The translations under genes were made by a program, and so were the position numbers. DNA of 63,744 nt, the filler included, from Globobulimina sp. (lineage: Eukaryota), in NCBI GenBank assembly GCA_003354225.1. It is 26 parts of 26 records of this genome, joined end to end, with 100 filler letters (N's around TTAATTAATTAA, not from the genome) between each part and the next. Parts side by side here need not be neighbours in the genome. Positions count along the whole stretch, not along the records: positions 22,110 to 24,465 come from PIVH01007182.1; positions 24,566 to 26,921 come from PIVH01007183.1; positions 27,022 to 29,377 come from PIVH01007184.1; positions 29,478 to 31,833 come from PIVH01007185.1; positions 31,934 to 34,289 come from PIVH01007186.1; positions 34,390 to 36,744 come from PIVH01007187.1; positions 36,845 to 39,199 come from PIVH01007188.1; positions 39,300 to 41,654 come from PIVH01007189.1; 18 more parts are not named here. One strand, given 5' to 3'. The notes under the pieces were generated by a model. That model was not told where the DNA came from and searched no databases. It worked only from the letters and a program-made list of their open reading frames with translations. The first letter of the stretch is position 1; every line of letters starts with the position of its first letter. Of the stretch, positions 22,476 to 53,850 are shown piece after piece.

Positions 22476-23230
22476 ATGTACATTTATCTATCTAACTATG
22501 CAACAGAAGTGACATTGATTCGAGCCATAACCGGCTCAGATTACAGAATTAACATCGCACAAAAAGCTCTGTTAGAGACCGTGCAATGGAGAGTCAGTAG
22601 TCGCGTGGATGAAATATCACCATTAATGTTTGAAAAATCAATCAAAACAAAGGTAGTTTTCAGTTACAATCAACATGATAAAAAAGGACATATTATCTGT
22701 TATTTTAAAGTGTTAGAAGTACCGCCAGAGGATCCTTGGCAAATTGTACGCGCTGCAGTATGGACCATAGTTTTGTTATTTGTTATCTATTATTTGTTAT
22801 TCATCCTTGCACTATTTATTATTGATAGGAAAAAGCAATAAAAATGTCACGCAAACGTGGCATACATCAAATTATGTGGTTATTGGATATTGAACATTTG
22901 CAGTACGCGACAGTTCCGCCACTACAGATATTGAAAGAGATAGCACACATTTTGCAGTATTATTATCCAGAGAGGTTGTATCGTGCCTATGTGCTATTTA
23001 GTCCTTGGGTGTTTAGAATGGTTTGGAAAATGGTCAGTGGCCTTTTAACTGAAAACACAAAAGGCAAAATTATTGTGCCTGGATGGTATGAGTCTGCTAA
23101 ATATGAAACATTCGCGCAACATATTGACAAAGCGAATTTGGATAAGAGATTTGGTGGCGATGCTCAATTTAAGTATTCCTATCAATGGGAAATTGATCAA
23201 TACATAAAAAGCAATAAATATATAAAATGA
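22476..23230 (+). CDS. CRAL-TRIO (Sec14-like) lipid-binding protein; intron 22770-22828; true start probably upstream
   Basis: ETVQWR, HDKKGH, ILQYYYPERL, PWVFRMVWKMV..LLTENTKGKI, RFGG. Confidence 0.88.
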
Positions 23231-23391
23231 CAAATGAGTTTTTTTTTGTTGTTATTAACATTGTTATATTTTTGAGTTAGATAATGGATAGCAAATACCG
23301 GCTGTTTCTTTATTTTAAAATATCACTGTTTTATTACTTCGGTTCGCTCTGCATTTTGCTCACATTTTGGCTGTAGAATCCGGCGAAAGAG

Positions 23392-24465
23392 ATGATTTCC
23401 TTAAACAAACACTCGATCAATGCATCGATAGCAGAGAGATATGCCTCTATTGGTTATGAGTTTGAGTTTGAAAACAAGAGTGATATGAATGGGAGCAATG
23501 AATTAAAATTTGCGATTACAATCGATGCCCAAGCATTTATTTGTGGATTTAGTGCAGACATTGATGGCGAATTATTTATTGGTGAGACGAAAGAAAAAAA
23601 GAAAGCAAAAAAAGAGTATGTTGCGGCAAAAGAAAAAAACGAAAATGCGATATTAATATCCCAGCCATATCCAGATATTGCCAATGTATTTGAAATCAAA
23701 ACAAATATTGACTCAAAAAGTAAAATATTATTAAAAATTCAAATTGAACAATATTTACAGAAAAAATTTAATTTTAACGAATTGAGTATTGAAATATTAA
23801 AAGAGTTTTATAAATATAACATCAAGAAAAATTATGATGCCATCTCGTTTAATTTGGAGATTGCGGATAAAAGAGGCATTTATGACATTCAATTGCCAGC
23901 AAACAACGAAATAGTAATTGAGGAAAATAGAATGAATAAAAATAACACTTTATGTATGATCAATGGCAAATGGCGAATAATTATAAATTAAATGAGTTTA
24001 GTTTAAAATACAAAATTAAAGGCGAACAAAATGAATCTAATATTTTATACGATAAAAAAAGCAAAACATTTGTCCACGTCATAAGTGATATAATCTCAGA
24101 TTCGACAATGAATGAAATGACTGAGGGCGACAATGACAGCAAAGAGATGGCGATGATTCCACGGCGTGTCATATTTGTAGTGGATAAATCGGGCTCTATG
24201 TCTGGCACCAAATGGGATAAAACCATTTCTGCCACAATTACAGCCTTAAAACAATTACGAATCGGCTATGATCGATATGGCATTATATTTTTTGATGATG
24301 CACTTGAATTTTCGCCAAATATTTTTGATAAAAGCAATATAGCCGAATCTATCTCTTATGTACAAAAGCAAGAAACGGGCGGTTCCACGGATATCAATTT
24401 GGCACTGTTAAAAGGTATTGATTTAATTAAAAGTGACATCAAATTAATGAGTGAGATGCAAGAAT
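23392..24465 (+). CDS. VIT-VWA (inter-alpha-trypsin inhibitor heavy chain-like) protein, 3' partial, frameshift near 23970
   Basis: VIT: AFICGFSADIDGELFIGETKEKKKAKKEY; VWA: VIFVVDKSGSMSG, GGSTDINLAL. Confidence 0.85.
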
Positions 24466-24717
24466 NNNNNNNNNNNNNNNNNNNNNNNNNNNNNNNNNNN
24501 NNNNNNNNNTTAATTAATTAANNNNNNNNNNNNNNNNNNNNNNNNNNNNNNNNNNNNNNNNNNNNTCAAACCTCTGACTTTAATGCATTTCTTTCATTAT
24601 CAAGAAAATGCTAGACCATTGTAATAAGATTTGAACATTATTTTAGTGTCTGATGCACTGTAATCACACATCAAACTGTAATAATAGATATCTTTATGGT
24701 CCATTTTTATTGTCGTT

Positions 24718-26139
24718 TCATAATTCTTGTTTTAATATTTCATTTGTATCAATTATATCATTCAAATATTTCAATATCAAGCTCCCAATTTCTTTGATTT
24801 GCTCCATATTTGTATAAATTTGACAACTTATACGAACATAAAATTTATTATTCCACTCAAACAACTTAAGTGCGACATCATTCTGCTCAAGAATGGTAAA
24901 GGAAATCTCACCAATTTTGTCTTGATTTAATTGAACACCATCAATTGTCGGTAATTCGACATTAATCATTCCAATAAAATGTTCAACATTTGGCATAAAC
25001 ATACTCGTATTCCACAAATTAGACAAATATTGTTGTGCTTCAATTGCAATGCCATGAATATAACTAATAATATTTGTATCTCCGCCCACCAAATATCTAA
25101 ACTCCAACGATCCCATCAATGATAAATATGCACTCTCATCCACAGTGCCAGGATGATGGAAAAACTGTTGAAAAGACGCATTTTTGTATGCCATTGCCAG
25201 CGGTGTAATTATATTTTGATATTCGTTTTTAACGTAAATAACCGCAGTATTCCATACAGAATAAAACCATTTGTATGCATTTGAAACATAAAAATCACAA
25301 TTTGAGCCACTTAGATTCAAAGCATAAATCTGTCCAAATGCATGAGCACCATCCACAACGGTAATAATATTTCTTTGTTTAAATAGCATTACAATGTCAT
25401 TCAACGGCAATATGAGAGAAGGCAGCGATGAGATATGTGAAAATACTGCAAAAAGAATGTTTGCAGTGTCTGGAATAGCATTCAATGTATCATTTATTGT
25501 ATTTATGATCGTATTATAATCTTTCAATATATATTCATCAAATTGGATCTCAATCAAATCAATTTCAAATAATCGTTGATAATATTTTAATGGTGACACA
25601 AATGCGGAATGTGCCGTATTGAAATATATTATGGAATAATGGGAGATATTGTTGGCGTTTTGAGCTAGAAAATGATCCATTAAAGATCTGATAACAATGT
25701 TCATTCCGTGAGATGCATTGATTGTGAATACTAAATCATTCATATCGTGAATACCTAAATAGTTTGCAATTTGTGAACGCAATATATTCATAATAAGAAC
25801 CGAATACACATCATCCCATAAATGTGGTCGTGAATATAATATGTTGCGAATGTGTTGGTGATATTTTATAACATATCTAGGCTGAGCACCATATGAACCA
25901 CAATGTAAATTAATGTAATTTGGAGCAAAGCTAAACAATGACGAAGACAGCACAGATTCACCAAAATTGCATTTATTGGCAATTACTTGATTCCGTAATC
26001 TTTGCAGTTCATCATTTGTGTTTATGCCAAAGTTGTGTGCAAATACATCGATTCCATCAGGTATTTCTCCAATGTCTTCATCATTGCATAGTGCACAGAA
26101 TACCTTTACAAGTATAGAAAGCAAAAGAATGTTGAGCAT
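24718..26139 (-). CDS. Class V PLP aminotransferase (L-cysteine desulfhydrase / Egt2 / isopenicillin N epimerase-like) with signal peptide
   Basis: INLHCGSYG, VVDGAHAFGQ, DFYVSNAYKW (PLP lysine), VRISCQIY; MLNILLLSILVKVFCA leader. Confidence 0.85.
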   Translation of the reverse strand: MLNILLLSILVKVFCALCNDEDIGEIPDGIDVFAHNFGINTNDELQRLRNQVIANKCNFGESVLSSSLFSFAPNYINLHCGSYGAQPRYVIKYHQHIRNILYSRPHLWDDVYSVLIMNILRSQIANYLGIHDMNDLVFTINASHGMNIVIRSLMDHFLAQNANNISHYSIIYFNTAHSAFVSPLKYYQRLFEIDLIEIQFDEYILKDYNTIINTINDTLNAIPDTANILFAVFSHISSLPSLILPLNDIVMLFKQRNIITVVDGAHAFGQIYALNLSGSNCDFYVSNAYKWFYSVWNTAVIYVKNEYQNIITPLAMAYKNASFQQFFHHPGTVDESAYLSLMGSLEFRYLVGGDTNIISYIHGIAIEAQQYLSNLWNTSMFMPNVEHFIGMINVELPTIDGVQLNQDKIGEISFTILEQNDVALKLFEWNNKFYVRISCQIYTNMEQIKEIGSLILKYLNDIIDTNEILKQEL

Positions 26140-26196
26140 GGAATTATTATTAAAGCCTTGAAGTTGTGGAAGAAAACTGCAGCCCAAAGAACGATA

Positions 26197-26921
26197 ATGG
26201 AGACGTTAATAAAACTAAGATCCGGAATGGATTTATTAAGTGATGATGAATTTTATCAATTTACTAAGCAAATACCCATTCAATACTTAGCAAATGTATT
26301 ATTCCAATTTTTCAAAAATGAATTATTTCAAACAACCAATATTGAAGATGCACAACAAAATATAATTCCAAATATTAATCAAATGGTAGACAAAATTAAT
26401 AATATTATACGTGGACGCGATGAAAAAAAATCAACAAATGATGAAGTCGATGATGAAGATATTGATATTATTGATCAACACAAATTAGTCCCGTTAAAAT
26501 TAGGTAGTTTGCCATTGGTTTTAATTTCTGAAATATCATCTTTTTTAAAATTAAAAGAATTATTAAAATTTGAGAAAATGAACAGAAATATATTTATTGG
26601 CTCCAGATCTCCGATTTCTATTAAAAAAATGGATGGTTCCGAATTTCTAAAATGTATTAAATACAGTAATCAACATAAATGTATGCATAATTTTTATAGA
26701 TTTGAAGCAATCCAAGAATTAGAAATTAATATTAAAGCTATCAATGATGAATATTATGATTTTGGTTTTAGCAAATTTATTAAATCGGATTTAAGTAATT
26801 TACAAATATGGCGACATTTAAATACTTTGAGTATAAAACATGATGATTCAGTATCTGACGATATGCCTTTCATTCCTCGTTTGGATCAAACAAAATTGTC
26901 CAATATTACAACATTTAGATG
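26197..26921 (+). CDS. F-box-like / LRR-like protein, 3' partial
   Basis: LGSLPLVLISEISSFL..ELLKFEKMNRNIFIGSRSP; paralog at 62381. Confidence 0.65.
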
Positions 26922-27412
26922 NNNNNNNNNNNNNNNNNNNNNNNNNNNNNNNNNNNNNNNNNNNNTTAATTAATTAANNNNNNNNNNNNNNNNNNNNNNN
27001 NNNNNNNNNNNNNNNNNNNNNTGCAAAACAGTTCATAATCAATTTACAATAATAGATATGACTATTTATATATAGTCAAAAAATCTTCATAATCACATCA
27101 TAATCGTTTCATAATTTCATAATTGAAGAAAAGCCGCGTTGCCGAAAAAGTGTGTTTGAAGGAAAGTGCCCATCTCCTTTATATTGCGCAATATAAGAAC
27201 AACCACCTAAAACAAAATTAAAGTAATTGAATTTTAATAATTTAATGAATGGTGAATGAATTAAAGTAATTGGGAAATTAGCCAAGTTACGATTATGATG
27301 TATGGATTAGATTTATGATGATACTCATAATCAGCATAAATAGTATGATTATGAGTGTTTGTACATAGAAATAGACATAGAAATGTTGAGAGTTTGCCCG
27401 TAACAAACATAA

Positions 27413-28246
27413 ATGTTGAGAAATTGGTTCCGATTTTCAACTAAATATTCACATTTTAAGTGTTCGAAATATTTTAAGTGCTGCGGCTTCGGTTTAATGA
27501 AAAGAAATTGTAATAGTGAAATTGTTACAAACTCTGACCTGGATCCGGGTATTCATGTTTTATTGGCCGACGATTATTATTGGGATTACCATTTATCAGC
27601 GGAGTGGAATTTAAAAAGATCAAATAAATTGCACATAACAAAAGGATTGAATTGGTTGTCAATGGAAAAAGCAATCTTATCCTCTGCAAATGAACCATGT
27701 TTAGCTGAAGATAATATTTTATCCATCATTGATCAAATCAAATTGTTACCATTCAAGAGCGTCGCCGTACTATCCATCGGATTTGCTGATTGTATCCATG
27801 AGCGATTATTTCAAACAGCAGCAGATCGCCAAATCACATTAATCTCATCGTCATTAAATATTATACCATCTCTAACAGGAAATACTTTAATCATCACATA
27901 TGATGGCAAGTTACTTACTCGTTATATGACGATTAAACACGATGGACAAAACAGATGGAATCAAGAATTTAATCGCAAAAACATAAAGATTTTAGGTATG
28001 GAAGATATTGATGCGGAATATAAAAATTTAATTTATAAATCATGCACAATATCAAAAGAACAGCATAGTGTATTTTTAAGCAAAGTAATCAATGAAACAC
28101 AAAAGCATACAATGGATGTTGATAACATTGTCATTGAATGTACCACAATCATGCAAATTGTGCCAATGCTAAAAGAATTAAATCCAAATCTGAATATTAT
28201 TGGCATTTCAGAAGCGATTGAAATGATTACTAGTGTGAATCATTAA
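27413..28246 (+). CDS. Aspartate/glutamate racemase-family-like protein with possible mitochondrial transit peptide
   Basis: IVIECT motif, SSSL.IIP, IITYD..LT; the first catalytic Cys (usually SCGF) appears as SIGF. Confidence 0.5.
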   Translation: MLRNWFRFSTKYSHFKCSKYFKCCGFGLMKRNCNSEIVTNSDLDPGIHVLLADDYYWDYHLSAEWNLKRSNKLHITKGLNWLSMEKAILSSANEPCLAEDNILSIIDQIKLLPFKSVAVLSIGFADCIHERLFQTAADRQITLISSSLNIIPSLTGNTLIITYDGKLLTRYMTIKHDGQNRWNQEFNRKNIKILGMEDIDAEYKNLIYKSCTISKEQHSVFLSKVINETQKHTMDVDNIVIECTTIMQIVPMLKELNPNLNIIGISEAIEMITSVNH

Positions 28247-28274
28247 TGTTTTAGTTTGTATAATTTAAATTGAA

Positions 28275-28961
28275 TTAAAATTTCGGAATCTGTCTAATAT
28301 ATTTCTTTACGTCAACGAAATGTAATACAACAATGAGAATAACAACAACCATTACTAATATTAGCATGCATGTTATATATTTATCAGACATGATTTTCCT
28401 TGTCATCCTTTGTAATCTTTTCTTGGCTCTGTCCATTTCTGTATCCATATAAGCCAAACCTTGATCCATTTTTAATATTTGCTCAGTTTGGTCATTTAAT
28501 GTAATCGCAGTATTTACCGCAATCTCTTTTATTTCTTCTAAATTTTTAATTGTTTGATCTGCGATATTTTCGGATTCGAATTGTAATTTTCTTCCATATG
28601 CGATTGCTTTGTCTTCATTATCGATATCAAGTACGTGTTCTCCGTATTCTTTGTTTGTTGTTTCACTCTTTGCATTCGCTAAAATCCATTTTATTTCGTT
28701 TCTGATTTCCTTTAAATGTTTACTAAATTCTTTGCAATGGGTTCTGTATAATCTTGCTTCTTTTCTATTTTTAATACTTGTTATTTCGATTTGAAACGAA
28801 CGGACCAATACTTGGAGATGTTGCACTTGCGATTCTAAACTGTTAATTTCTGATTCTGTTAGTAATGCACTTGATGTCTTTTGATAATTTCCAACCAACC
28901 TATCTAATTTACGAAGATGACCTTTGATTTCTTGTTTTCTTGCTTCAGCAATAAACTGCAT
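28275..28961 (-). CDS. NPSN-type Qb SNARE
   Basis: Habc-like N-terminus, SNARE heptads (TAITLNDQTEQI), RKIMSDKYI then C-terminal TM. Confidence 0.8.
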   Translation of the reverse strand: MQFIAEARKQEIKGHLRKLDRLVGNYQKTSSALLTESEINSLESQVQHLQVLVRSFQIEITSIKNRKEARLYRTHCKEFSKHLKEIRNEIKWILANAKSETTNKEYGEHVLDIDNEDKAIAYGRKLQFESENIADQTIKNLEEIKEIAVNTAITLNDQTEQILKMDQGLAYMDTEMDRAKKRLQRMTRKIMSDKYITCMLILVMVVVILIVVLHFVDVKKYIRQIPKF

Positions 28962-29011
28962 TTTAAAGTTATTAAAATTGTTTTATAGTAAAACTGTACT
29001 GTTAAAGTAAC

Positions 29012-29377
29012 ATGGCAGTCATGGCAGAGGAAGTAAAAACGATACTAAAACGTTGTAAGTTAGAACAGCATTACCAATATTTATCAACCAAAGGATTTAA
29101 TTCATGGGAATCATTACAATTGTTGGATCAATCTGATTTTGAGCAATTACAAGGTAACGTACCATTTATCTTCTTGTTGTAGTCAGACATATATACAATA
29201 CACATTTACCAGCAATCCCCTATGGCCATTTCAAATTACTCCTTCAAACCATACAGCTATATGCTAAGGAACAAAATATTTCAGCTGGCGATAAAAAAAT
29301 ACGTCCAAAATATAAGCAATTTCTAAAATCATTAAATAAAATTCCCAAACCACAAAATGTATTCGATAATGTTGATA
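29012..29377 (+). CDS. SAM domain protein, 3' partial; intron 29154-29212 (not in ORF track)
   Basis: Spliced MAVMAEEVKTILKRCKLEQHYQYLSTKGFNSWESLQLLDQSDFEQLQAIPYGHFKLLLQTI. Confidence 0.72.
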
Positions 29378-29983
29378 NNNNNNNNNNNNNNNNNNNNNNN
29401 NNNNNNNNNNNNNNNNNNNNNTTAATTAATTAANNNNNNNNNNNNNNNNNNNNNNNNNNNNNNNNNNNNNNNNNNNNTACATTCTTACAAATGATTCAGT
29501 GGACGGTTCAAATGAGTTCAGCAATGCGGCCAATTCTGCGATTTGAGCAGACTTTATTGTCTCTGCTTGATTTGAATGGAAAGAGTACCACTCATTCATT
29601 AAATTAATAAATCGTTTTGCTATTAAAAATGGGCGGATCGCATCGGATTTTGTGATGGTAAATAAATATATTTGCTGACAGGACACATCCAATGGATACG
29701 GATGACGTAGGTTGTGAGTTATTAATTGTGCACTGAGTGGGTGCTTTGTTAATGCTGCGGTTGTTTGGCAAACAAAATCAAATAATTGCTCTTCAGTTTG
29801 AACCATTTTGAACCAATCAAAATACGAATTTGTAGCGTTGCTACTTTGGTGTAGTTTGATAGTACATTTGCAAAATACATACAAAAGGCTAAAACACAGT
29901 GGATGCAACAAGTGCATTGAAAGTATTCAGGTGAAGCTTAACAAAAAGTTTTTGAGGGGTACACGTCCAAAAAACTTAATAAA

Positions 29984-30737
29984 ATGTCAGAGGTCATTTT
30001 CATGTTTGATATCAACGAAAGAATAAAATCTGATCCTTGTGTTGGCGAAAATGATGGATTCATGCTGATTTTATCAAGTTTGATCCATGCCTGTGAATTG
30101 ACTGAAAATTGTCCAAAAGGAATATATTTAGTTATTATTCAGTTTGCCAATGCCATTGGTGTTCATTCTCATAGTTTACAAAAACAAATCAATGCAATGA
30201 TAAAATGGACCAATTCATGGGCTCAATATGAATATGCAAAAATACAGGTTTTGAATCGGTATCAACGGGAAACGAATAAATTATGGATGTGTTGTGGTAA
30301 AAAAATGAAAATAAAAACAATTTACGATGAAAAAGGAGTGATATTAAAATGTTGTAATTCATCCAAGCAATGTTGGGAGAAAATATTAATAAATAAATTG
30401 ACAAAAAAAGAAATATTTGGAAAACCACAAGAAATTGAAAGATGTGCTGGAGAAGAATGTGGCTGCCTTTTTTTTGAAAGAGTAACTGATAAAATATGTG
30501 TTTGTAGCCATTCAAATCAATGTCATACAAAATATAAAGTATATCCCGATGAATGGGATGGACAGCAATCCAGACCAAATAAATTAAGTGAGGAACAAAT
30601 TGAAGAACTACAAAAATTACCAATTGGATGGAGTCAATATGCGTCTGCAAATGGTATTGAATTATTATTATAACTCAGTTACTTCCGAAACCTCATGGAG
30701 TCATCCTATGCATGTAACTTATTATATTTATTTTTAG
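29984..30737 (+). CDS. Cys-rich protein with C-terminal WW domain (1-nt frameshift near 30662)
   Basis: LPIGWSQYASANGIE continues in the next frame as YYYNSVTSETSWSHP. Confidence 0.7.
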
Positions 30738-30771
30738 CCTGATTCTTTGCCACACTAGTTTTTACATCCCA

Positions 30772-31833
30772 ATGGGCATTTTAATTCTAGGTTGTTTGTT
30801 ATTTTTATTGGTAAACGTTGAGAGTACACCTGCTCCTGGATTTAATCAGGTCACACAGGCTCCACAATTCAATCCGGTCACACAGGCTCCACAATTTAAT
30901 CCGACCACACCCACTCCTCAATTTAATCAGGTCAACGTTCTTAACGGAAAGTCTCGATATTTTATTGAACCGTCGACAGATTTATATGTTGCCACTGCCC
31001 GTCCATTGAATATATGTCATGAAAATTCATATAGAGAGTTTACAATTTATTCTTGTGATACAACATCAGATCCAAATAATCACATATTAATCGCAGCAAA
31101 ACACGGCAAATCTTATCCAAACTGCAATTCACCAAACGTGACTATTGAATATTTTTATCAATCCGAGTTGAGCTCAATGAATGGCGCAGAGTCATTTAAT
31201 TGTATCGGAGAGGATAATTATTACATTCTGTATGAATTTATAAACGAACCATTATGCAAAGACTACATTGCTTCAAACAAGAATGACGAATCAAATGAGA
31301 ATGCCCAATTCGTGCGAAAACAATACGGAGTGCCCAATATTTGTTATGAGCACAATATACTTGCAGTTACATCAAAAAACATAACTCACTTCGATGAAAG
31401 TTTGCGAATGAATTATTGCAATGCATATTTTTATGGATACAGGTTTTTTGAAGATGATGGTACAAATTGTTTGGATCGATATAAAAATACATTTTACGAA
31501 GGTCCATGGCCAGGCTCTATTTTCTCGCCAAATGTATGCAGCACAGATATCGATGGTTTGTAACAAAAAACTTTGTATTTTCGCACTTTAATTTTTTGTC
31601 GGAAAATACAAACCGCAGTAAAACAAAAAACGTTTTCAAAAATAAAACAAAAACTAATATAACACTAACAGGAGATTTTAATTTCACAAGCGTGATATTG
31701 CACGAATGTGTTATCAATGGAACCGTTATGAAAGCACAAGATTATGAATACGATGAAACCTCATTAAAACAAATAGGTTATCGAGACAGAAGTGCTCTGA
31801 TTGACTTTGCCGTATCCACAGCAGATATGAATT
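30772..31833 (+). CDS. Secreted Cys-containing protein with N-terminal FNxxTxAPQ repeats; intron 31556-31671; 3' partial
   Basis: Signal peptide; 27-bp tandem repeat 30841-30933. Confidence 0.7.
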
Positions 31834-32960: not shown

Positions 32961-33777
32961 TCATACTGGCAATTCCATATACTTTCCGATGCTCACTGCC
33001 TTGAGATAATAATAAAAGAAATCGATATATAATAAGGTTTGCACAATGCCAGAAACCCAAGCAATTGGATCGTAATAATTGTCTTCCGATAAAAAGCGAT
33101 AAATCCAATTTATAACATATAGGGCCCGATATGCGCCCAAACAAAATACATAATGCGAGGTTATATTTTGCACACTGCCTTGGTTATCTTTTGCGTATTT
33201 CTGAAGCATCACTAACTGCGGCATTATGGAGACAGACTGTAATTTGTGTAATATGTACGTTGTATGAGTATGGCGATGATGTGTATTAAATAAATAGAAA
33301 TAGAAAATAAATGTTTTAACTTCTAAATAAATGGAGAATGCCCATAATATCTCAAACGGAGTGAATGTAACATTAAAAAAGAAGGCTAAGATAAAGCATG
33401 GTATTATTAGTATTAATACTTGGAATTTGTCAGAAGCCGCATCGTAGGTTCTACAAATTGGATTTTTAAATTTCATATAATAAACGATAGCGTATGAGGT
33501 TAAGATGAAAATTAATTTCATGACCCAATTATATAAGGACCAAAAATTCCAAAATAAATCCAAATAACGACATGTAAATACCACGCAATATAAGGCTTGC
33601 GTTTTGAGAGAGATTCCCTAAATATTATTAATCAAATGAATGAGTGCAAGGATATTATTATCATTTCTCATTGTCATTGTACTAAACTACACAATTTTGA
33701 GCGCCTGCGACTTTTAGTAATAATATGAATATACTGATAAGATGTATGAAATCGGCACCCAGCCGGAAGATGTTCAT
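32961..33777 (-). CDS. ERD2: ER lumen protein-retaining (KDEL) receptor; introns 33618-33687 and 33237-33320
   Basis: MNIFRLGADFIHL, GISLKTQ, RYLDLF, WAFSIYLE/SVSIMPQL, LGAYRALY, DFFYYY. Confidence 0.96.
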
Positions 33778-34456
33778 GATGTGGTTTAATTGTCTGGTAT
33801 TGCGTTAATTTAATTATCCAAACCGAAAGCAAGGATTGATGAGTAGAGCAAAAACACTTCAAAAAAGTTTTTGAATCATCATCGGATATCGGTTGATTTT
33901 GCTGGCGCAAAAATAATTAATGCAAGATCGATCCAATTTGCATAATTTAGATAACTTTTGCGACTCTCAGTGCCCATGACTCGCAGTGTCAGTATGTCAC
34001 AAAACCGCGCTACTCATCAAAAGAGAAAGTCCGCGCTCGATCGGATATAAATTATAAATTAAATAATAAATATGTTAATCTGTTCTCCAACAAAGCCTTA
34101 TCTTATTCACATTTTCTTTTTTTTTTAATGTTTTTTCTTTTATATCACTATGTGAATATCTTTTGTTTAATCGCGATGTCATATCAATGCGTTTAAGAAC
34201 ACGTTTCCAGTAAAGAAGTATCTCTTTGGCAAGCCAGTTATCCTGATGTTCCAACACAAACTGTTCATGCTCAATAACTTTTTGACCAANNNNNNNNNNN
34301 NNNNNNNNNNNNNNNNNNNNNNNNNNNNNNNNNTTAATTAATTAANNNNNNNNNNNNNNNNNNNNNNNNNNNNNNNNNNNNNNNNNNNNAAAAAAAAAAA
34401 ATAAGTTGGCAATAAAAAAATAATATACAGCGGAAGCGCGTAAATTGGATTTAATA

Positions 34457-35332
34457 TTAATTTAATTCTTTAAGAATTTTTAATACAGATTCATCATCAT
34501 TTTTTTTTGGATTTAAGTCAGATATTCTTCTCAATGGCCCTTGTGATGATCTTGAACTGGCACCAAATCGCGCGAGATATTTTATCCATTCATTGGGAAT
34601 ACCAACACTATACAAAGTTGTACACATTGACCACATTTTTTTGGCAAAATGATGGCAATTATTGGTCGTCAAATTATATCTGCTGTTCTCACTTTCTGAA
34701 CAACAGCGAATTAAAAATGCCCTTAAATCAGTATTTTTCGATTTTGAGGCGCCTGCACTTTCATAGAATGTTCTCTTGCGAATATCCGAACGAGATCCAT
34801 ATTGTACACCATTCTTCCGTGTTCTTTCAACAATAAATGAAACACTATCTGTAACTGATGCTATTTCCCACCCTTTAGGCTTATTAGCTTCGTCTAAATC
34901 AAATTTAGCCCAAATGATTGAATGTTTACCATCCACCGCAGCCCCTTTATTCTTAAGGGGCCGAGTATACCATTTCATGTTCGACATTTTATAATCTGTT
35001 AACTTTGGATGCCAATACTGAATTTTAACCTCTTCTTCTTCATTTCGTGATATGAAGCAATGCTCACAAAACCCAGCTTTATAATAATAATTTCCTGATT
35101 TTTTCCATTCGTCCCAAGTAATTTTGTTATACAAAGAATTACATTCTTTGCATCTCATATTGACTGTATTGCCTGATCCGCCAACATAACGCTGTTCTTC
35201 ACCACAACATGGTTCGCAATAACCTCGTCTTCTTGTTACTGTGCCTGATATGTTCCATGTGTCACTGTCACATCTATAATAAGTCTTGCTGCATCCTCTA
35301 CACCTAATACCTACTTCACCTGAATTCCCCAT
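34457..35332 (-). CDS. Putative N-myristoylated protein: two Cys4 repeats plus permuted NlpC/P60 (PPPDE/LRAT-like) domain
   Basis: MGNSG; CxxC...G[YF]CxxC twice; KHS...VER...YNLTTNNCHHFA. Confidence 0.7.
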   Translation of the reverse strand: MGNSGEVGIRCRGCSKTYYRCDSDTWNISGTVTRRRGYCEPCCGEEQRYVGGSGNTVNMRCKECNSLYNKITWDEWKKSGNYYYKAGFCEHCFISRNEEEEVKIQYWHPKLTDYKMSNMKWYTRPLKNKGAAVDGKHSIIWAKFDLDEANKPKGWEIASVTDSVSFIVERTRKNGVQYGSRSDIRKRTFYESAGASKSKNTDLRAFLIRCCSESENSRYNLTTNNCHHFAKKMWSMCTTLYSVGIPNEWIKYLARFGASSRSSQGPLRRISDLNPKKNDDESVLKILKELN

Positions 35333-35626
35333 GTTTTTAGAAAATTTTAGTTGAGTGAACAGCGCATTTTTAAAAACACTTTTCTTTTTTACTCTGTATT
35401 GTATATATCCGGTGTAGATTGTATAGCGTATTCTCGCAAATCATTTTAAAATACTTTGCATAAATCAGATACAAAATATCGACCATGGGGTCTTGATAAT
35501 GTTTTCCACTCTCATTGTTCACTTGCTTTTATACTAAATTCTTCCATGCTACAATCACAAACCAAACAGTGAAACCATCGAAACTTTCCACCCACTCATT
35601 ACCGATAACAAATAACATTAATAATA

Positions 35627-36340
35627 ATGGCTAAGGTGGACAACAAAGCATCCAACACCCAAATTATGCAAATGCATAATCTCAAAAAAAAACACGGTGT
35701 GGTGGGTAAAATTGATGAAGTCGATTTAGGATGTACTGATATTATATATTACAATGGCTGTAAGTGTTTAAATGTGGCTGACCCAAATCAGTTGCCCTGT
35801 GTCATCCGACCTAATCCCAACGTATGATATCTGATCACCCATATCCTTGCACAAACACTCAACACAACACAACACATATTCTTATCTAATCTGACATAGG
35901 ATGCATACTTAACGAGTGACCCTGACGTTGATGGCCAAATAATGATAAAATTGCAGTTTCGTGATCCAGTGTCATTGACGAGGATAATATTGAGAGCCAC
36001 CAAAGGGCCCTCGGCCGATGACATAAAAGAAGCATTTGACGATGATGAGGACGATGAGGATCATACGCCAGCGGGGCCCCGTTTAATTAAATTATTTGCA
36101 AATAAGCCAGAATTAGATTTTACTGATGCGGAAGACATGAAACCTGCGCAGCAAATTGCAATTAAACCAAAACAATTAAAAGGCGATAAATTGCAATTAA
36201 AAGCACTTAAATTTCAAAGATGCACATCATTACAAATATTTTTTGTGGATAACCAGAAACAATCAGAATTTACCTTTGTTAATAGGATTGGATTAGTTGG
36301 CCGATTGGCAAAAGGATATCATACTGAATATGGAAAATGA
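35627..36340 (+). CDS. PITH domain protein; intron 35822-35899
   Basis: CLNV, LTSDPDVDGQMMI, GPRLIKLFAN..LDF, KFQRCTSLQIFFVDNQ. Confidence 0.88.
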
Positions 36341-36844
36341 CTTGTTTTTTGCGCATACTTTTTTTTTTCGTCAATGTTTGAAGTGTTTTATTTTCACATT
36401 ATTTCAATTCAATTCAATTTCAATTCAATGCTATAGTGTTACATCAATAATCCATTCAAGATTATGATATTATGAGTTCTGAGGTAGTGGTAGTCGATTT
36501 TAATGGTTACTTGGGAACAAATGTATAGCTGAATGGAACGTATACAATTAATACAAAAAGGGTGGGACAAAGTTATAGCAAACCGTTTCTGTATAAAAAG
36601 TTTAACTGAAGCCAAATTAACGAAATTAATATTGTCAAGAGCTTGAAATTAAATGTCAGTCATTTTTAATATGAAGGAGATTGTTTAATGTTTTTTTCGA
36701 TGAGATTTCTTTGGTTGAATGGCTTGCGCAGAACGTAGGAACACNNNNNNNNNNNNNNNNNNNNNNNNNNNNNNNNNNNNNNNNNNNNTTAATTAATTAA
36801 NNNNNNNNNNNNNNNNNNNNNNNNNNNNNNNNNNNNNNNNNNNN

Positions 36845-41344: not shown

Positions 41345-43038
41345 TGTTTTGTTACAAATATGAGTGGATATACTGTTGTTTGGTTATTTTGAGTTTTTGT
41401 AATTGTAATGTTTGTATATTGGCTATATTTTACAATGTATCACCTAAAAAATATGAAATTGATTTATAATATTTTTTTTTCTATAATCTATTAATTTATA
41501 CAGTAAATTCTTATTATTTTTTTATTAAAACTAAGTCAAACATATATTCCAATGAATTAAATATTTTAGTTTACAAACACAACGTGATATGTTTGATCCG
41601 CTGCTTTTAACATACATTTCCTTAACATTCAACTAATTCTACTATTTCGCAACANNNNNNNNNNNNNNNNNNNNNNNNNNNNNNNNNNNNNNNNNNNNTT
41701 AATTAATTAANNNNNNNNNNNNNNNNNNNNNNNNNNNNNNNNNNNNNNNNNNNNCTGAGCAATATAAAGTGTCTGTGATGATTGGGGTGATATTATGTGG
41801 TATGTCTTTGTTGTGTGTTTTTTTGAATGATGAATAAATTTATACCGATATCTGAAACAATATGAATGAACAAATTAACCGCGCTTAAACTGAACAACCC
41901 ATTTTTTACCATTTTGTTTTTGTTATCTGATTTTTTGAAATGTTTTTATCGGAATTTCTTTTTAAAATAAACAGTGTTTATAATATGGTATGTTGTATAA
42001 TATGTTAATTATTTATTTGAGTGCATTTGGAATGATGAGAGATCATTGAATCAGCTACTTACGACACACTGCAATGTGGATGATAGCACCCCGATGAGTT
42101 CTGATAGGAATTCATTAATACATTTTAATTTTCTATTCATTCTTTTATAAATTTTATGATGTTATTATAAACTATACAGAATATTGGATGGTAATACATT
42201 ATTATCCAAAGCATGCCAATGTGGTATGTTTATATTGCAAAATGTCGCTTTTTCTTTTTGATGATATTATATCGAGTCGTATATCCTGATTATTGTGATT
42301 ATAATATACTAATTCTGATAAACTTAAAAAAACTACAATACGTATCTCTTTTTCTTTGTTTATACAAAATATAATTGACGTATTGCTACAAAATATACAG
42401 CAGTTATAATTATATATGGTTTCGAGTCGAGATGAACTGCTCCAATCTAATAATGTATGGCTATGTGTTTGTTTTGTATTTTTGTTTTGTGTTTAATTAT
42501 ATTTATTACCAATATCATTATGTGCAAATAATGCTAAATCTGCACTCTCTCTGAGTCAGATGATACGATCGGATCTGTTGTAAGGTCAATACTACATTTA
42601 TCACTGCATTTTCTCTGCACTGATTACATGCCGCACAATAAACAAATCCATAAGAATCGAAGTAAATCCATAGCAAATCCATTATATGCGCAGAAACAGT
42701 AAATGTATACTCAGAAACGGTATTTGTTTTAGGTTTGTTTTCATTAATTATCAATCCCTCACAAATCTGTTCATCGGTGCTAAGAGTGGATCTGCCTTCA
42801 GTCGAACAAAATAAATTACAGTCAAAACCACCCGATGGAGGCACACTGCAATCAATAACATCACAGTGAGTAATTAGTGGGAATATTACTGGAAATGATG
42901 ACCAGATTTAATTCTTCAAAAAGTTTTTGATGTTTAACTACAATTTGAAATATCCAATTTGGTGTTGGATATAGTTTAGGTGCAGATTATTTCGGTGCAG
43001 TGGCTGTTCTCTGACAAAAGCTGACAATAAAACTAATA

Positions 43039-46388: not shown

Positions 46389-47211
46389 GCATATAAATCT
46401 CATTAAATTACACGACAAATGGATTGTTTTAAAATTGGATTTAATAAGATTTTTTTTGCTTGATATAAATAATCCATCTCAACGCCAGCAAATAATGCTT
46501 GATTTTCCAGGTAAATTTCGATTAAATGATTTGGTGATAAATGAATAATTAACGAGGACAACATNNNNNNNNNNNNNNNNNNNNNNNNNNNNNNNNNNNN
46601 NNNNNNNNTTAATTAATTAANNNNNNNNNNNNNNNNNNNNNNNNNNNNNNNNNNNNNNNNNNNNTGCTATTCATCATTTGTTTTTTATTAGTGAATAATG
46701 CAGCATTACAATGCTTAAATGAAAACGGACACGATGTTGATTGGTGGTTTATTTACAAGATTAATAATGGATTATCTTATACAACTTCTCAATCTCAACT
46801 TCTCAACTTCTCAATGGCACCTTGCCAATAATTCTTGACTACTTCGAAGCTGATCCATTACATAACGACAGTACCTTTAACTGTTTATAGCCTCCATCGC
46901 GAGCACAGTCAATTACACGTCGTTATATTAGCTTTTTTATTCAATTAAACAGGCAATTAAGTCACAAGACACAACCTGGCCGATTCATTTTTCATCACAC
47001 AAGCAGAATACGAAGAGATCCAACACAACGAAGCAGTTCGAACAATTACAAATCACACACCTATTTATCAACAAATTTCAAGAGAAATTACTGCATTCGT
47101 TACATTCAACGAAGTAACAAATAAAGATATCGATCATTCGATTAGTATTTATAACGAAACGAGAAGAAATCTCATCGCTGAGAATAATTTGAGAGCATTT
47201 GAGTCTGAACA

Positions 47212-49019
47212 ATGTCAATTCTTTCATCAAAGAAACAATCAACACGAACATCTGCGGAAGTGCAACAAATGCCAACTCCCAATGGCGAATTGCTGTTGCC
47301 ATCGCGTACAATATCTACGATGGACACAACAAAACATGGTCCAATACAAAATATATTCAACCCTCCAATAACTACCACTAATAAATATGCGCAATATCGC
47401 AACAACAATAATAATTATAACTCCACACCGCGGCGATCAACACGCATTACTAAGATGCGGCAACATCGCCATAAACAACAACAGCAACAACAATCATCAT
47501 CTTACACCAACAAAAATAAACAATATAAAATCAAAGCACAACATCATACGCAGATTCGCAACAACAACATTAAACAAAGCAAACACGTGGCAAGCAATCA
47601 AAAGCCAAGCAAACCTCCTATGGCTAATAAAAGCACATTTAAATTTAATTTTGATTATAATAATAATAAACCATTAACAAATAACAATAAATCAGAGGAT
47701 AAGGTAGAAAACAAGGATTATAATGGCGGCATTAAGGCAGCGAAGAACAAGAAAAAAAGGCGACGCACATTTTCAACAGACTCTGATGGCGATATTGTCG
47801 ATATTATCGACGGCAAAGTAAAGAAAATCAGTCCCAAACGGAAGAAAATTAGATTAAACAATCACAAAAAGCCGAGTAAGTTTTTGAAAATCACTCAGAA
47901 TCCCGGAAAAATCCAAGAACATATCTCAACTTTGCAGTTAGATGTAAGCAGTACCTCATCCGTCATCGTAGCAACCATTAGCACACAACCAGCCATCAAT
48001 AAACCGGAATTACCAATTTGTACCATCTCAGACGACGAAGACGGCGACTTACTAACTTATAAGCAATATAAGCAAGCAAATCCGCGAAGATATGATATCA
48101 ATACGGATTTCACGATTATTCCAAAGAATTTTAGATGCGGGAACGATAAAAAGCTTTTTTATCAAAATAGGAAATTATTTGCGGGCAAATCGACCATTGT
48201 TACAGCACAACAATGGATACAAGAACAGAAATCAGATAATATCCCATCATTAATTCCACCCAAAACTGATCATAAATCGCTTACAAAGACAGTACATTGC
48301 AACAACTGCAACAAACAAATCGCAATCGACGAAATTAAATACAATTTAGAACAGATATCATTTATAATTGATTGGTTCTGTGATATATGCACTACCAACG
48401 ACGCAAAATTAAAAATCAAATGGCATTGTAACAATATTAAATGCAAAGAACATAAAAAGCATTGGTCGCGTTTTCTAACATTAAAGAAACACCAAATCGC
48501 GACGAAGAATGATAATTTACATCTCCACTCCAAATTCTTTCAAATATTCAACATCAAATTATGTATTAACGTGGGCTGCAATGAAGAATTGGAAAATGAT
48601 AATGATTCGGAATTATGCGTAATTTGCACGCACAAATCAATAAAATCACAATTTTATGGCCTTAACGATGAATCAAACGACTTTAAAATGGCAATCATCG
48701 ACGATTCGAAAATGGATATCATTGACATAAATACATTAACCATTCGAGATACATATGCAGTGCCATCATTTATTGATATCTGGACATCAAAAATTAGAAC
48801 AATTGAATCGATTCCACCGCGGTTTATTAGAAAAGTAATCGAAGTGTACGTCAGACTGATACGCAATGCGCGACACAAAAATGACATGCGAGCTTGGATT
48901 GAATTATGCATGTTTTGCAAAACCATTTTAGCGAAGTCCGACAAAGAAAATAATCCATTTACGTTCTCCGAGCGTATATCTATGGTCTCAGCGGGCGAAA
49001 TTATTAAATTATTCACCAT
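47212..49019 (+). mobile_element. Probable non-LTR retrotransposon (CRE-clade-like) ORF, N-terminal part; RT lies beyond the contig end
   Basis: Low-complexity N-terminus, CxxC and C2H2-like fingers, then TIESIPPRF...AWIELCMFCKTIL...ERI..AG, resembling the pre-RT region of CRE-type elements. Confidence 0.55.
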
Positions 49020-49146
49020 NNNNNNNNNNNNNNNNNNNNNNNNNNNNNNNNNNNNNNNNNNNNTTAATTAATTAANNNNNNNNNNNNNNNNNNNNNNNNN
49101 NNNNNNNNNNNNNNNNNNNCCGATCACCAAGAAGCCTCTCCATAAA

Positions 49147-50809
49147 TTAAAATCATTGATTACAAGTTACAATCTAGATTTCAATAAAAACGCACCGCCA
49201 GCAAGTGCAGCAACAGTTAATGGCGAAATACTGAACGGCAATTGCCATTTTTTAGGTTTTTCCTCCGTAAACATTTTCCAAATCTTATTTTTAAAATCAG
49301 TAAATGGCGGCAAACGCAAAGAATAGCTCCCCTCACCAGAATATTTATTCAATACCGGTTTCTCGTGACAAAAAGCAGCAAATGAATACCAACCATGGTA
49401 CTTACCAGTACCGCTATGCCCAATACCGCCAAATGGAAATCCTGGGAATGCACAATGAGAAACAACATCGTTTATAGTCACACCACCGGCATCGGTGTTG
49501 TTCACTATCCTGTCCGCAAATGATTTGTTTGCCGTAAATATGTACATCGCCAATGCTTTCGGCTGTGATTGAATAATCGGAATGGCGTCAGTCAAAATAT
49601 CATCCACCGGAAATATAGATATTATCGGTCCAAACACCTCCTCGCTCATCACTGGCGAACTAAAATCGATATTGGACAGAATGGTCGGTGCTATATAATT
49701 GTCCGAGACATCCACCTCTCCGCCAACCGCAATGTTCACTTTATTCTCATCCAAAACCTTGTTCAATCGCTGAAAATGTTTCTCATTTATGATCCTCGCA
49801 TAGGCCTCACTTAATTGCGGATTCTCTCCAAAAAACCCAGTAAATGCGCGTTTCAGTGCAGTGATAATTTTGTGCTGTGACGTTTTGTTAACAATAATAT
49901 ATTCCGGCGCTAGGCAGACTTGTCCAGCATTGATGCACCAACGTCCCCAGGCAATGCGCGTTGCGGCCATGTCAAAATCACAATTATCATCCAAAATGAC
50001 GGGATTCTTACCGCCTAACTCCAACACGCAAGGCGTTAAATGCTGCGCCGCCGCACGGGCCACGATCTTACCAATGTTGCAACCGCCGGTGAAAAATATT
50101 AAATCGAACTTATTTTTGAGCAAAAGTGTGGTTTCTGTGACACCTCCATTCACCACATGGTAGCAATCGGAATCTAAGTATTTGGAAATTAAGCTCTGTA
50201 TCAATGCAGCAGAATGACTGGAAACTTCTGATCTGTGCAAGGATGATTTGATTCACTTTAATGTATATATTGGCAATTAAGTATATTACATACGGTTTGA
50301 TGATGGCAGTACAACCCGCAGCAATGGCACCTGCTAAAGGGAGGAATGTGAGTAGGAATGGAAAGTTCCAGGGACTGATTAATAAAATATTACCCAATGG
50401 CGTATAATGTAAATATCCGGAATCTGTGATGAAAGCAGTGGTGGAGGCTATTTTTTTGGCTGTCATGTATTCTGATAAATGGTTGATTTGATGAGCAATT
50501 TCAGATTTGGAGATGGAGATTTCTGTGATACTGATCTCATTTTTGGGGCGATGTTTCATGTCTGATTGGATTGCCTGCGTTATTTCGTCTGCGTTTTCAT
50601 CGATTAATTTGTATAATTGATGTAATTGTTTCCGACGATAGGATTCAGGCAATGTTATTCCTTTTAAAAATGATCTTCTTGTTTTTGAAATTATCTGTAT
50701 ACCGTTGCAATCATTAAACTATCTATTTCGATCAGACTCATCAAGAGAAGGAATTTTTTTTTTTAACGTTTGGAATTTCCGAGATTTTTGTGTAGTGTTG
50801 AGTTGCCAT
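49147..50809 (-). CDS. ALDH3: Aldehyde dehydrogenase family 3 (fatty ALDH-like); introns 50695-50767 and 50233-50293
   Basis: PWNFP, KP/SEV, FFTGG, LELGGKNP, NAGQVCLAP, EEVFGP, PFGGIGHSG; C-terminal TM ending SRL (PTS1-like); TAA stop at about 49167. Confidence 0.93.
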
Positions 50810-51842
50810 GGTGACCGGGTTCAGAGTTTTTAGTTAGTCTGCAACTATTTTACCACACATTGTTACAAAATATATTCTACCAACTTATATAGCATCGTAC
50901 TTTATTCTTTATTGTATTTATCCATTAACATTTTGTTGCCGGATTATGTCTGCCTTTATGTGGGTCGGCGAGATGCCACATATTGTCTATTTGATAAATA
51001 TTTATCCTGAATAGGTCGATCAGTTGCCACAGGTACAGATATATGTTCTGTACATATAATGGATACTGTCACTTAATTCGCCTGTTTCAGATGGAATAAA
51101 CACCATTCCTTTGCTGATTGTAAGCAGGTCCTCTAAACTTTGCTATCAAATTCATTGGATCAAATTCAATATTTGATTTTGGTGGATAAACGCACCAAAA
51201 TATCAGCATCAACCCACTCAAAAAGGCACAAAATGTATGTATTCACTGTTGCAAATTTTGTTTTTTTAACTCTGTTTTTGTCATATAAATATTATGTGTT
51301 ACTACGAAAGGTCGTGTTTTGCGAAGCATAGCATTTTCCACTTTTTGTGATTGAAGTGTTCAATTCAGTATTTTTTGTGATTATATTCGTGCAGCCTTTA
51401 TTAAAGCGGAATAGTTGTAAGTGATTACATATAATATTATTTTCAGCTCAATATTATGTATATTAGAAGTTATTNNNNNNNNNNNNNNNNNNNNNNNNNN
51501 NNNNNNNNNNNNNNNNNNTTAATTAATTAANNNNNNNNNNNNNNNNNNNNNNNNNNNNNNNNNNNNNNNNNNNNTAAAAAAAACAACGTGATTTAATACA
51601 TCCTGAAACACTCAACAAACGAAAACAACAATAAGTGATACAAAGCTATGACTTATCCATCTAAAATTTAATCAAAATAAAAAGAAAAAGCTATGACTTA
51701 TACCATCTTATAATAAATTTGTACAATTTCTCAAAGAAATAAAAATTAAAAGAAAAAGCTAATAATATATTTTGATATTTTTATTATACTAAATTATAAT
51801 TACCGCGGTCGCCGGAGACATATAAATATGATGCAATATACG

Positions 51843-52775
51843 CTAAATAATATCGACATCCATGCCTTGTAAATCATATTCATTGTAATCTGTGGATATG
51901 ACCCATGTTCCTTCGCTATCACTATCATCATCATCATCAATATCAGGACAACAGCCATGTTCAAAGGATACAAAACCACAATAATCCTTTGCTTTTGCTG
52001 TTGCTTTTGAAACAAAACTATTATTTATCATGTTATCTGCAACCAGGCAGGTCTGCTGACTCTGGTATGATACGATTGGAAGCAAAGAGCGTGGGTTTGA
52101 TTGGTATAATATTTCCTGAATCGATTTAAATCGCATCGTTAACGAACTCAATTCACTCAATATTTGCCCGGTTGCTGCGTTATATTGTGATTTAAACAAT
52201 TTCTTATAACTATATCTCCACCAATTCGCTTCAAATTTAATCGCTTTATACTTTGATTTTGTAACTGCATCATATAAATTGGTCAATCTCTCACTAAAAT
52301 GCCTCCAAAACGGTGATATTAATCCATCCGTATCATGCATTTCATACTCATCAAGCATCCAAAACGCTAAATTTTGACTGTCTTTCCATCGTAAAAGCAT
52401 CAGAAATTGCTCAAAAACTACCGAATCTATAAAGTATTATTATTTTTTATTATATTCAATAGCTGCAAATTATGACAAACCTTCAAATATTTTGATTCGA
52501 CCTAAAATAGTTTTTTCCATCTCATGTTTATATGTTATGGGAGAATATATCCATTTCTTTTTTAATGGTAACATAAAGATTGACGAATATAAAACGTGCG
52601 TTGGACATAAAGACCATGTCTGATACAAACCAATCAATGATATAAAGACAACCCTTCGCCTGTCACACGCATTAATATTGCATGTAGTGTCCATTCCATT
52701 TCTCATTTGTTGTCGATGCAAATCGATAATAAATTGCTCCGGATTCGAAGCTTTGCTTTTCTTTGCTTGCTTCAT
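51843..52775 (-). CDS. Hypothetical protein; intron 52427-52480
   Basis: Two ORFs joined in frame by a GT-AG intron. Confidence 0.6.
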
Positions 52776-52929
52776 TGCAATTGAATGTCTTTTGTATTAT
52801 TAAATATTTATAAGTCAATTACACAAAAACATTAAAACGAAACTGATTTCCCATTATGAACGTCGATCGAAAAGGGTTGAAAATTGAAAAAGATTGAAGT
52901 TAATTAACTAACACAACTGAAGTAACACA

Positions 52930-53850
52930 TTACTGTTTATCATTATTTGTAGGTGCTTGGACAGCAGAATCCGTCGCCAATCTATACTCTGCCTTTAACA
53001 CCCAACTCCTTCCGCCTTTCTCCGCATTTTGAAATCTATCGCACAATCTTTGCACAATTGGCCTCAAGAAATTCCATGGTTCGCCAGTCTTTATTTCCAT
53101 ATCTTTCTGCGACAAACAACTCTCTTTCTCAAATGCGGCAAATACCATATTCTCATACAACCGCTCATCTTTCCTCACATTCTTCACTCTCTTCGTCTTC
53201 CTCTCCGTATTGTTCTTATTCTTATTCGATTTCACATTCTTTTTATCCAACCTCCGATTTGCATTGATTCTCTCCATTGCGTCCCTATCCCGCTCCGCCT
53301 TCGACTCATTAAATATATTCTTCTTCGCCTTTATCTGCATCGTACTGAACACATTCATAATTACTCAAAAAGCGCAAGGATCAAAACACAGCAAAACTAA
53401 ACTGTTGAAACGATTTTTTCATTGACCGCAACTGCAAAAATTGCTTATACTGCGGCGTCCATTGCGGAGTGACATCCATTTCGCCGTTGACCACGCCCCA
53501 TATTTTGCACTTATTCGCTCGCGCCGCTTCCTGCGGATTCTCAAATCTTATGTCTCTTTCTGGCACTTTGTACCGCTGTTTCTTGCTCTTATTATAATTG
53601 AATTGCACGGTGAAGGTGCGATCATTGTTAATCTCTTTGATGCAGCCTTTGCCATAGCCACCGAGACTGGTTTTGTTTTTACTTTTGTTCTGCTTCTTGT
53701 TCTTGTTTTTATTCTTACTCTTAACATCATCGTCTTCCTCCTCTTTCATATGGCTCTGACTGTGACTCCGCGAATTGTCCAAGGCTTCGACCTGCGAACC
53801 AACGGGAAATGGCGGCTTGTCGTGGAATACTAACAATTTATCCGGCCCCC
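52930..53850 (-). CDS. GTF2F2: Transcription factor IIF beta subunit with Tudor-like insertion; intron 53345-53402; 5' partial
   Basis: Winged helix MVFAAFEK..LSQKDM..TGEP..FLRPIV...WVLKAEYR; IWGVVNGEMDVTP..QYKQFLQLR. Confidence 0.82.

Follow-up and report, generated by a model that had tools for sequence, protein, structure and literature searches.

A recurrent ten-base word on the sense strand of short foraminiferal introns and its complementarity to U6 small nuclear RNA

Why should one exact ten-base word recur in the introns of unrelated genes, and by what might it be read? The question is raised by a 63,744-base stretch of Globobulimina sp. DNA (GenBank assembly GCA_003354225.1; the whole of it is hereafter called the window), in which the word ATCCTTGCRC occurs seven times, five of them within predicted introns. 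As we will argue below, the word is a real cis-element of pre-messenger RNA, carried on the sense strand by roughly 15-40% of the short (~60-80 nt) introns of this rotaliid foraminifer. We consider it probable that it functions as an intron element at the level of RNA, and we put forward U6 small nuclear RNA (snRNA), tentatively and on sequence complementarity, as the partner with which it may pair.

The window is a composite of 26 unlinked contigs, sorted by size from 2357 down to 2353 bp and joined by linkers of the form N44-TTAATTAATTAA-N44 (at positions 2358-2457 and at 24 other places); distances and neighbourhoods that cross a linker are meaningless. The window is not a single locus, and every copy of the motif lies on a contig of its own. 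Because the copies are spread over separate, unlinked contigs, their recurrence is more telling than it would be inside a single locus. All motif statistics rest on the 61,244 real bases of the window, whose GC content is about 32%. The assignment to a rotaliid foraminifer follows from the longest exon of the ALDH gene, for which the top protein matches (70-78% identity) are transcriptome proteins of Bolivina, Nonionella and Elphidium. When the ALDH exon was compared with prokaryote genomes in search of mis-binned foraminiferal contigs, the best 80 of 108 matches were 36-44% identical and all carried bacterial or metagenome-assembled-genome titles. No tRNA genes were found in the window.

Recurrence of the word in short introns

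The seven copies of ATCCTTGCRC compare with 0.09 expected from 100 dinucleotide-preserving shuffles, among which the maximum was 2 and none (0/100) reached 7. The form with A at position 9 occurs six times by itself, where an order-2 Markov model predicts 0.109 copies (P = 2.1e-9), and its P value after correction for all 524,800 canonical 10-mers is 1.1e-3. The copies and the introns that hold five of them are as follows:

22803-22812, plus strand: ATCCTTGCAC, in an intron of a CRAL-TRIO gene, acceptor 16 nt on
22770-22828, plus strand: predicted CRAL-TRIO intron, 59 nt, GTTTTG..ATAG; the reading frames change across the gap
33644-33653, minus strand: ATCCTTGCAC, within intron 1 of the KDEL-receptor gene ERD2, acceptor 26 nt on
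33618-33687, minus strand: predicted ERD2 intron, 70 nt, GTTTAG..TTAG, added by hand; the donor may lie 3 nt upstream
35843-35852, plus strand: ATCCTTGCAC, in an intron of a PITH-domain gene, acceptor 47 nt on
35822-35899, plus strand: PITH intron, 78 nt, GT..AG, with the joint 35821 to 35900 in contigs of runs X5, X6, X7 and X8
50235-50244, minus strand: ATCCTTGCAC, in an ALDH3 intron, acceptor 2 nt on; with its flanks TCATCCTTGCACAG
50233-50293, minus strand: ALDH3 intron, 61 nt, GTATGT..ACAG, with the junction ..IIKP/SEVS.. as in Bolivina protein P0001; Pfam Aldedh
53372-53381, minus strand: ATCCTTGCGC (the G variant), in an intron of a lysine-rich gene, acceptor 27 nt on
53345-53402, minus strand: predicted intron of the lysine-rich gene, 58 nt, GTTTAG..TCAG, with both ends as predicted
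6045-6054, minus strand: ATCCTTGCAC, in NAGLU coding sequence, on the sense strand, over codons N-P-C-T in a conserved stretch
57377-57386, plus strand: ATCCTTGCAC, intergenic, where two genes converge: the stop codon of an MFS gene (same strand) lies 253 nt away and that of an FKBP gene (opposite strand) 10 nt away

The excess is confined to the complete word. Forms with at most one mismatch number 13 against 3.39 expected, but 7 of these are the core copies themselves; six one-mismatch forms occur in the window besides the G variant, and near-variants are not enriched. Sub-words behave in an all-or-none manner: each CCTTGCAC is a complete copy, and only two extra instances of ATCCTTGC exist. 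The sole variant found in an intron is the change from A to G at position 9, which keeps the ability to pair with U (as G-U), and strictness of this kind suits base pairing better than it suits a degenerate protein site. Nor does similarity extend beyond the word. Anchored flanks (±30 nt) are identical at a rate of 0.277, against 0.299 expected from composition, and outside the word no column is common to more than five of the seven copies. The possibility that the word is a piece of a longer dispersed repeat, raised in the first-pass annotation as a result that would overturn its reading, was checked in this way, and the flanks proved unrelated.

To ask where the copies fall, we used gene models built from codon log-odds and splice-site matrices, a strict run of which gave 31 introns; addition by hand of the ERD2 intron, which had escaped that run, and the shift of one donor by homology, gave a set of 32, whose long members are doubtful, so that the total is an upper bound. 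These 32 predicted introns cover 2,949 of the 61,244 bases (4.8%, at most), and yet they hold five of the seven copies (P for at least 5 of 7 = 5e-6). When only the six non-coding copies are considered, five are intronic, whereas introns make up 18.9% of the non-coding DNA (P = 1.2e-3). All five intronic copies stand on the sense strand (P = 0.06 alone), and among words in predicted introns this one ranks first, by far. Of the 13 predicted introns no longer than 80 nt, 5 carry it, and its host introns measure 58-78 nt.

The description given in the first-pass annotation thus stands in most of its particulars: all seven positions and strands, the one copy in NAGLU coding sequence and the one between genes, an intron total of about 35 (a reasonable figure beside our 32), the acceptor distances of 2, 16, 26, 27 and 47 nt (correct under the intron models used here), and the enrichment in introns and on the sense strand within the window. 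The larger interpretation built upon it is supported in part: the word is real, intron- and sense-specific, no piece of a repeat and complementary to U6 sequences, a function in splicing by way of U6 stays a proposal, and a suggested association with weak donors is not supported. GTTT donors do begin three of the five motif introns, but they are not special to them, as 9 of the 27 other predicted introns begin in the same way (Fisher P = 0.34).

The gene context of each intron is supported to a different degree. In the CRAL-TRIO and ERD2 genes, an intron is placed around the word because reading frames and stop codons force one. For CRAL-TRIO, the downstream open reading frame (ORF) begins at position 45 of the Pfam CRAL_TRIO profile, and the dynamic-programming gene model put the donor 12 nt upstream, at 22758, which would give an intron of 71 nt; for ERD2, the downstream ORF begins at position 4 of the ER_lumen_recept profile and the upstream ORF starts MNIFRL. 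The ALDH3 acceptor is fixed by homology: over the junction, the transcript-derived protein of Bolivina has the residues ..IIKPSEVS.., which places the acceptor directly after ..TTGCACAG and the word 2 nt from the 3' splice site. The PITH intron is joined out in contigs of all four runs (run kinds unrecorded, three guessed to be RNA), Pfam PITH matches the exon downstream of it, and its interior was covered by no piece and showed no differences among the matches listed for the four runs. In the lysine-rich gene, the upstream frame runs into a stop codon that overlaps the motif's first base, and the downstream frame is not open until the motif has been passed. The names first given to these genes are confirmed by Pfam for CRAL_TRIO, ER_lumen_recept, PITH, Aldedh and NAGLU; the name TFIIF-beta, for the lysine-rich gene, found no backing in Pfam for the two ORFs that flank the intron (E <= 0.01). 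The copy within NAGLU, where the Pfam match starts at residue 230 of the ORF, is probably a chance copy.

We note several further features of the same contigs and introns. The MFS transporter gene (plus strand) and the FKBP12-type gene (minus strand) converge at 57121-57399, with 273 nt between their stop codons, and the FKBP gene has an intron of 63 nt (GTTTGT..TCAG) at 57620-57682. The PITH-gene contig is matched at >=99% identity by contigs of run X5 and at ~90-95%, with many substitutions, by those of X6-X8 (from the coded organisms C and A; window positions 34455-35314 and 35591-36460), a difference that points to two or more related strains or species, probably represented by transcript data. 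The 5' splice sites of the organism are degenerate (GTTTGT, GTATGN, GTAANN, GTTAAG, GTCTGC). Its confident introns fall mainly in the range of 58-78 nt, and in the predicted introns the candidate branch sites are TNAAT-like and lie 10-15 nt before the acceptor; these splice-site and branch-site patterns are useful for training foraminiferal gene finders. A second exact 10-mer, CAGAAACGGT, occurs four times against 0.06 expected, at 13112-13121, 15362-15371 and 42712-42721 (plus strand) and at 36582-36591 (minus strand). Its flanks are likewise unrelated, two copies stand in the sense strand of longer predicted introns (13094-13193 and 15308-15421) and two outside gene models, and comparison with U6 and with the U4-like RNA described below showed no relation. 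Finally, an inverted duplicate of about 50 nt around GGTGCTTGTAGCAACCAAAGGGA, within a single contig (59002-59070, minus strand, and 60123-60190, plus strand), accounts for part of the excess of GTAGCAAC.

Complementarity to U6 and a proposed role in splicing

U6 is the obvious candidate partner because the word exactly matches a core spliceosomal RNA. The Rfam U6 consensus holds ..CCCCUGCGCAAGGAUGACAC.., to which the G variant is a 10/10 complement. It likewise contains CUGCGCAAGGAUGA, and matches to the complement of that segment had been claimed for the ALDH copy (13/14) and the CRAL copy (11/12), both correctly. The A variant requires a different U6 loop. To look for one, metagenome contigs were scanned for places where the reverse complement of the ALDH copy lies 15-19 nt beyond a U6 ACAGAGA box, which yielded at least 118 loci; of the 118 environmental loci fetched, 74 are U6-like genes with ..CUGUGCAAGGAUGA.., that is, with a GUGCA loop. 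A GUGCA-loop U6 is therefore a natural and common variant, and the earlier guess that such a loop would accommodate both forms of the word has a real counterpart. The A variant complements this natural U6 at 10/10 positions, and the ALDH copy, when its flanks are included, at 14/14. Calculated duplex energies against the GUGCA loop are -15.0 kcal/mol for the A form, -14.6 for the G form (with one G-U) and -23.7 for the ALDH copy with flanks. Complementarity was measured throughout on the Rfam consensus and on environmental U6-like genes.

One of the 74 loci, L037, shows the same letters in a U4-like context. It carries a U6 gene at 2-110 (minus strand; 81.5 bits against Rfam U6) and, 112 nt away on the opposite strand (~222-330, plus), a short, divergent U4-like RNA that the Rfam U4 model missed. 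Along this RNA come UCAUCCUUGCACAGGGA, which complements the stem II strand of the locus's own U6, then a hairpin, then UGUAUUGUAAAGCGUUU, which complements that U6 just upstream of ACAGAGA, and an Sm-like site, AUUUUUGAC. The predicted cofold of the two RNAs reaches -93.7 kcal/mol, against -31.2 and -23.3 for each separately. The foraminiferal intron word is identical, letter for letter, to the U6-pairing strand of this U4-like RNA, and the label of a "U4 5'-end mimic" that had been offered with a question mark is accurate as a description of sequence. The organism of L037 is a marine stramenopile akin to diatoms and not a foraminifer (its named relatives are diatoms, at 30-38% identity).

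On the strength of these matches, we propose that the word would be read through base pairing by another RNA, and that this RNA may be U6. The word would complement the loop and 3' strand of the U6 internal stem-loop, the segment otherwise held by the 5' end of U4 in stem II, and the intron would thereby contain a duplicate of the end of U4 that binds U6. With 10 bp and about -15 kcal/mol, such a duplex could tether U6, either free or during its release from U4, to introns that are short and have degenerate 5' splice sites and branch sites, and the word would act as an auxiliary splicing signal. In favour of base pairing are the ten strict positions, the single A/G change that allows G-U, and the restriction to introns and to the sense strand. 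A more specific version, which we regard as possible though rather doubtful, is that foraminiferal introns hold a built-in copy of the U4 5' end that may tether U6, help to displace U4 at activation, or hold U6 after catalysis; it predicts that the lineage's U6 has a GUGCA loop and that its U4 begins AUCCUUGCAC. The GUGCA loop of the host U6, the pairing itself and the direction of its effect on splicing are all things that we infer.

A number of observations weigh against U6 pairing. The wobble-compatible pattern RTYYTTGYRY occurs 33 times, 7 of these being core copies, and the 26 others show no enrichment when set against the 18.6 ± 4.4 expected for the whole pattern. A host U6 with a GCGCA loop would leave the A variant with an A-C mismatch and 8 bp, at -12.2 kcal/mol. 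The GUGCA-U6 loci, 669,637 nt in all, are not enriched for the word (2 extra copies against 1.28 expected, one of them the U4-like gene), from which it follows that possession of a GUGCA U6 is not enough for the intronic word to appear, and that the enrichment is a trait of the organism in the window. A 10-mer match to some conserved RNA also carries a look-elsewhere cost and, over all RNAs, is not vanishingly rare. The U6 segment in question pairs with U4 in the tri-small-nuclear-ribonucleoprotein and later forms the catalytic stem-loop, so an intronic competitor has no obvious slot in the cycle. The position of the word is free (donor distance 21-49 nt, acceptor distance 2-47 nt), and since the majority of introns are without it, it cannot be required. 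Lastly, the sample is 61 kb with five host introns, and all but one of the five intron models are founded on reading frames and Pfam matches.

Other explanations for the word

The main rival to U6 pairing is a site for a sequence-specific RNA-binding protein, which could serve as a splicing enhancer or silencer or as a nuclear-retention or decay mark, with the U6 complementarity a coincidence. Such a site would display the same specificity for introns and for the sense strand, intronic elements bound by proteins typically have no fixed place, as is the case here, and UUGCAC comprises 6 of the 7 bases of the U1 snRNA loop that is bound by U1A-type RNA recognition motif proteins. The word also lies in largely unstructured introns, a feature that counts for U6 pairing as well: the folds of its host introns are weak and inconsistent (-1.2 to -8.7 kcal/mol), and the motif is predicted to be unpaired to much the same degree as the remaining intron sequence in four of five cases and more paired in PITH (probability unpaired 0.45-0.76). 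What makes us judge a protein site unlikely, if still a serious competitor, is that ten invariant positions with no excess of near-variants would be unusually strict for a single RNA-binding domain, and that the 10/10 match both to U6 and to the U4-like strand would have to arise by chance. The strictness and the G-for-A variant fit pairing in general, and another trans-acting RNA bearing GUGCAAGGAU, such as a small guide RNA or a different snRNA, could in principle be the reader. We hold this to be improbable: U6 already offers a perfect match, and Rfam scans of the window gave no snRNA or convincing RNA gene (0 matches at the gathering threshold, and at E <= 1 three weak, irrelevant matches with no snRNA among them). 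C/D small nucleolar RNAs and mirtrons were rejected as classes, Rfam having no match at the motif sites and the introns no consistent hairpin. A site read at the level of DNA, that is, a transcription-factor or chromatin-protein site that happens to fall within introns, would account for an exact 10-bp word, as is typical of DNA-binding proteins, and for the one intergenic copy. It sits poorly with the intronic share of the non-coding copies reported above (5/6, P = 1.2e-3) and with the restriction of intronic copies to the transcribed sense strand, and we give it as little weight as another trans-acting RNA.

The word might also be a functionless footprint, either what is left of the core of a mobile, intron-creating (introner-like) element or the product of a templated insertion, as its confinement to introns of similar short length (58-78 nt) could suggest. 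Against this, the flanks are dissimilar (0.277 against 0.299), near-variants stand at chance level, and decay would not keep a 10-mer exact at all six non-coding sites amid randomised surroundings; we consider such an origin improbable, if slightly less so than the DNA-level site, and a dispersed repeat or introner family was rejected, similarity being confined to the core 10-mer. Less credible still is the view that a divergent spliceosome, minor (U12-like) or major, uses the word as a signal akin to a branch site. The word and U12-type signals have a TCCTT core in common, which recalls the U12-type branch site, and in three introns the acceptor lies 16-27 nt away. However, none of the five donors (GTTTTG, GTTTAG, GTATGA, GTATGT, GTTTAG) is of the ATCC type (consensus RTATCCTT), which led us to reject U12-type introns. 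An ordinary branch point was rejected as well, in agreement with the first-pass annotation: the acceptor distances of 2, 16, 26, 27 and 47 nt are not constrained (~10-40 nt for U2-type), at 2 and 47 nt a branch site is excluded, and the 2-nt distance in ALDH3 is fixed by the Bolivina transcript protein. The word is moreover unlike a YNYURAY-type consensus, and TNAAT-like candidates stand near -10 to -15 in motif introns as in others, with TNAAT/CTAAT-type candidates nearer the acceptor than the word in four of the five. The survey PMC11347168 scores 2.1% of Reticulomyxa introns as "minor-like", which favours a U12-like signal, and states that minor snRNAs were not found in Rhizaria, which does not; that score could be explained by a TCCTT-containing, TCCTTGCAC-like word. 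Least credible of all is chance, or an artefact of assembly or library. The assembly is highly fragmented, but no shuffle of 100 reached seven copies, the copies lie inside coherent introns with reading frames intact on either side, one of them encodes conserved NAGLU residues, and the flanks contain no adapter-like sequence.

Significance and comparison with known systems

Spliceosomal introns are thought to be recognised via three near-universal signals, and lineage-specific additions are rare, usually short and degenerate. We know of no intron signal that resembles the U6-pairing strand of U4, and the literature searched describes neither a foraminiferal intron motif of this kind nor an intronic U6 or U4 mimic, which agrees with the earlier characterisation of the element as undescribed; the literature matches to the word's spellings, judged by title and abstract among the matches listed, look like incidental matches to primers or probes. 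An exact ten-base word in an appreciable share of one lineage's introns would offer unusually clean access to the way in which very short introns are defined despite degenerate splice sites, and, as foraminiferal gene structure is almost undescribed, the word itself is new annotation knowledge for gene prediction. If the pairing with U6 were true, it would constitute a new kind of splicing signal, addressing a part of U6 untouched by known intron signals; the pre-messenger RNA would then directly address the U4-binding, catalytic stem-loop of U6, with a bearing on the control of U4 release and U6 folding.

At first glance the proposed duplex reproduces stem II of U4/U6, since the word complements the same U6 segment (in the Rfam consensus for the G form, in the natural GUGCA variant for the A form). 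It differs in that the word is located inside introns of pre-messenger RNA, is 10 nt long, and is not followed by the U4 5' stem-loop, the stem I strand or an Sm site. Several intron signals are known to pair with snRNAs, namely the 5' splice site with U1 and U6, the branch site with U2, and the U11-binding enhancer formed by copies of the U12-type donor. Like these, the word is a short sense-strand intronic sequence that would pair with a spliceosomal snRNA, and like the U11-binding enhancer it would be auxiliary; unlike them, it would target a segment of U6 other than that of ACAGAGA, has no fixed position and is found in a minority of introns. The spliced-leader RNA of nematodes, which pairs with U6, probably outside ACAGAGA, for recruitment, is a precedent for such contact of U6 with a splicing substrate, but is a small RNA dedicated to trans-splicing, whereas the word sits in ordinary cis-spliced introns.

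Protein-bound enhancers such as the Rbfox hexamer are similarly sense-strand, intron-specific and flexible in position, yet they are 5-7 nt long and tolerate variants, in contrast to the ten all-or-none positions seen here. Introners, finally, present a comparable picture of sequence common to the introns of unrelated genes in a marine protist, but they are alike over their whole length, whereas the foraminiferal introns share the 10-mer only.

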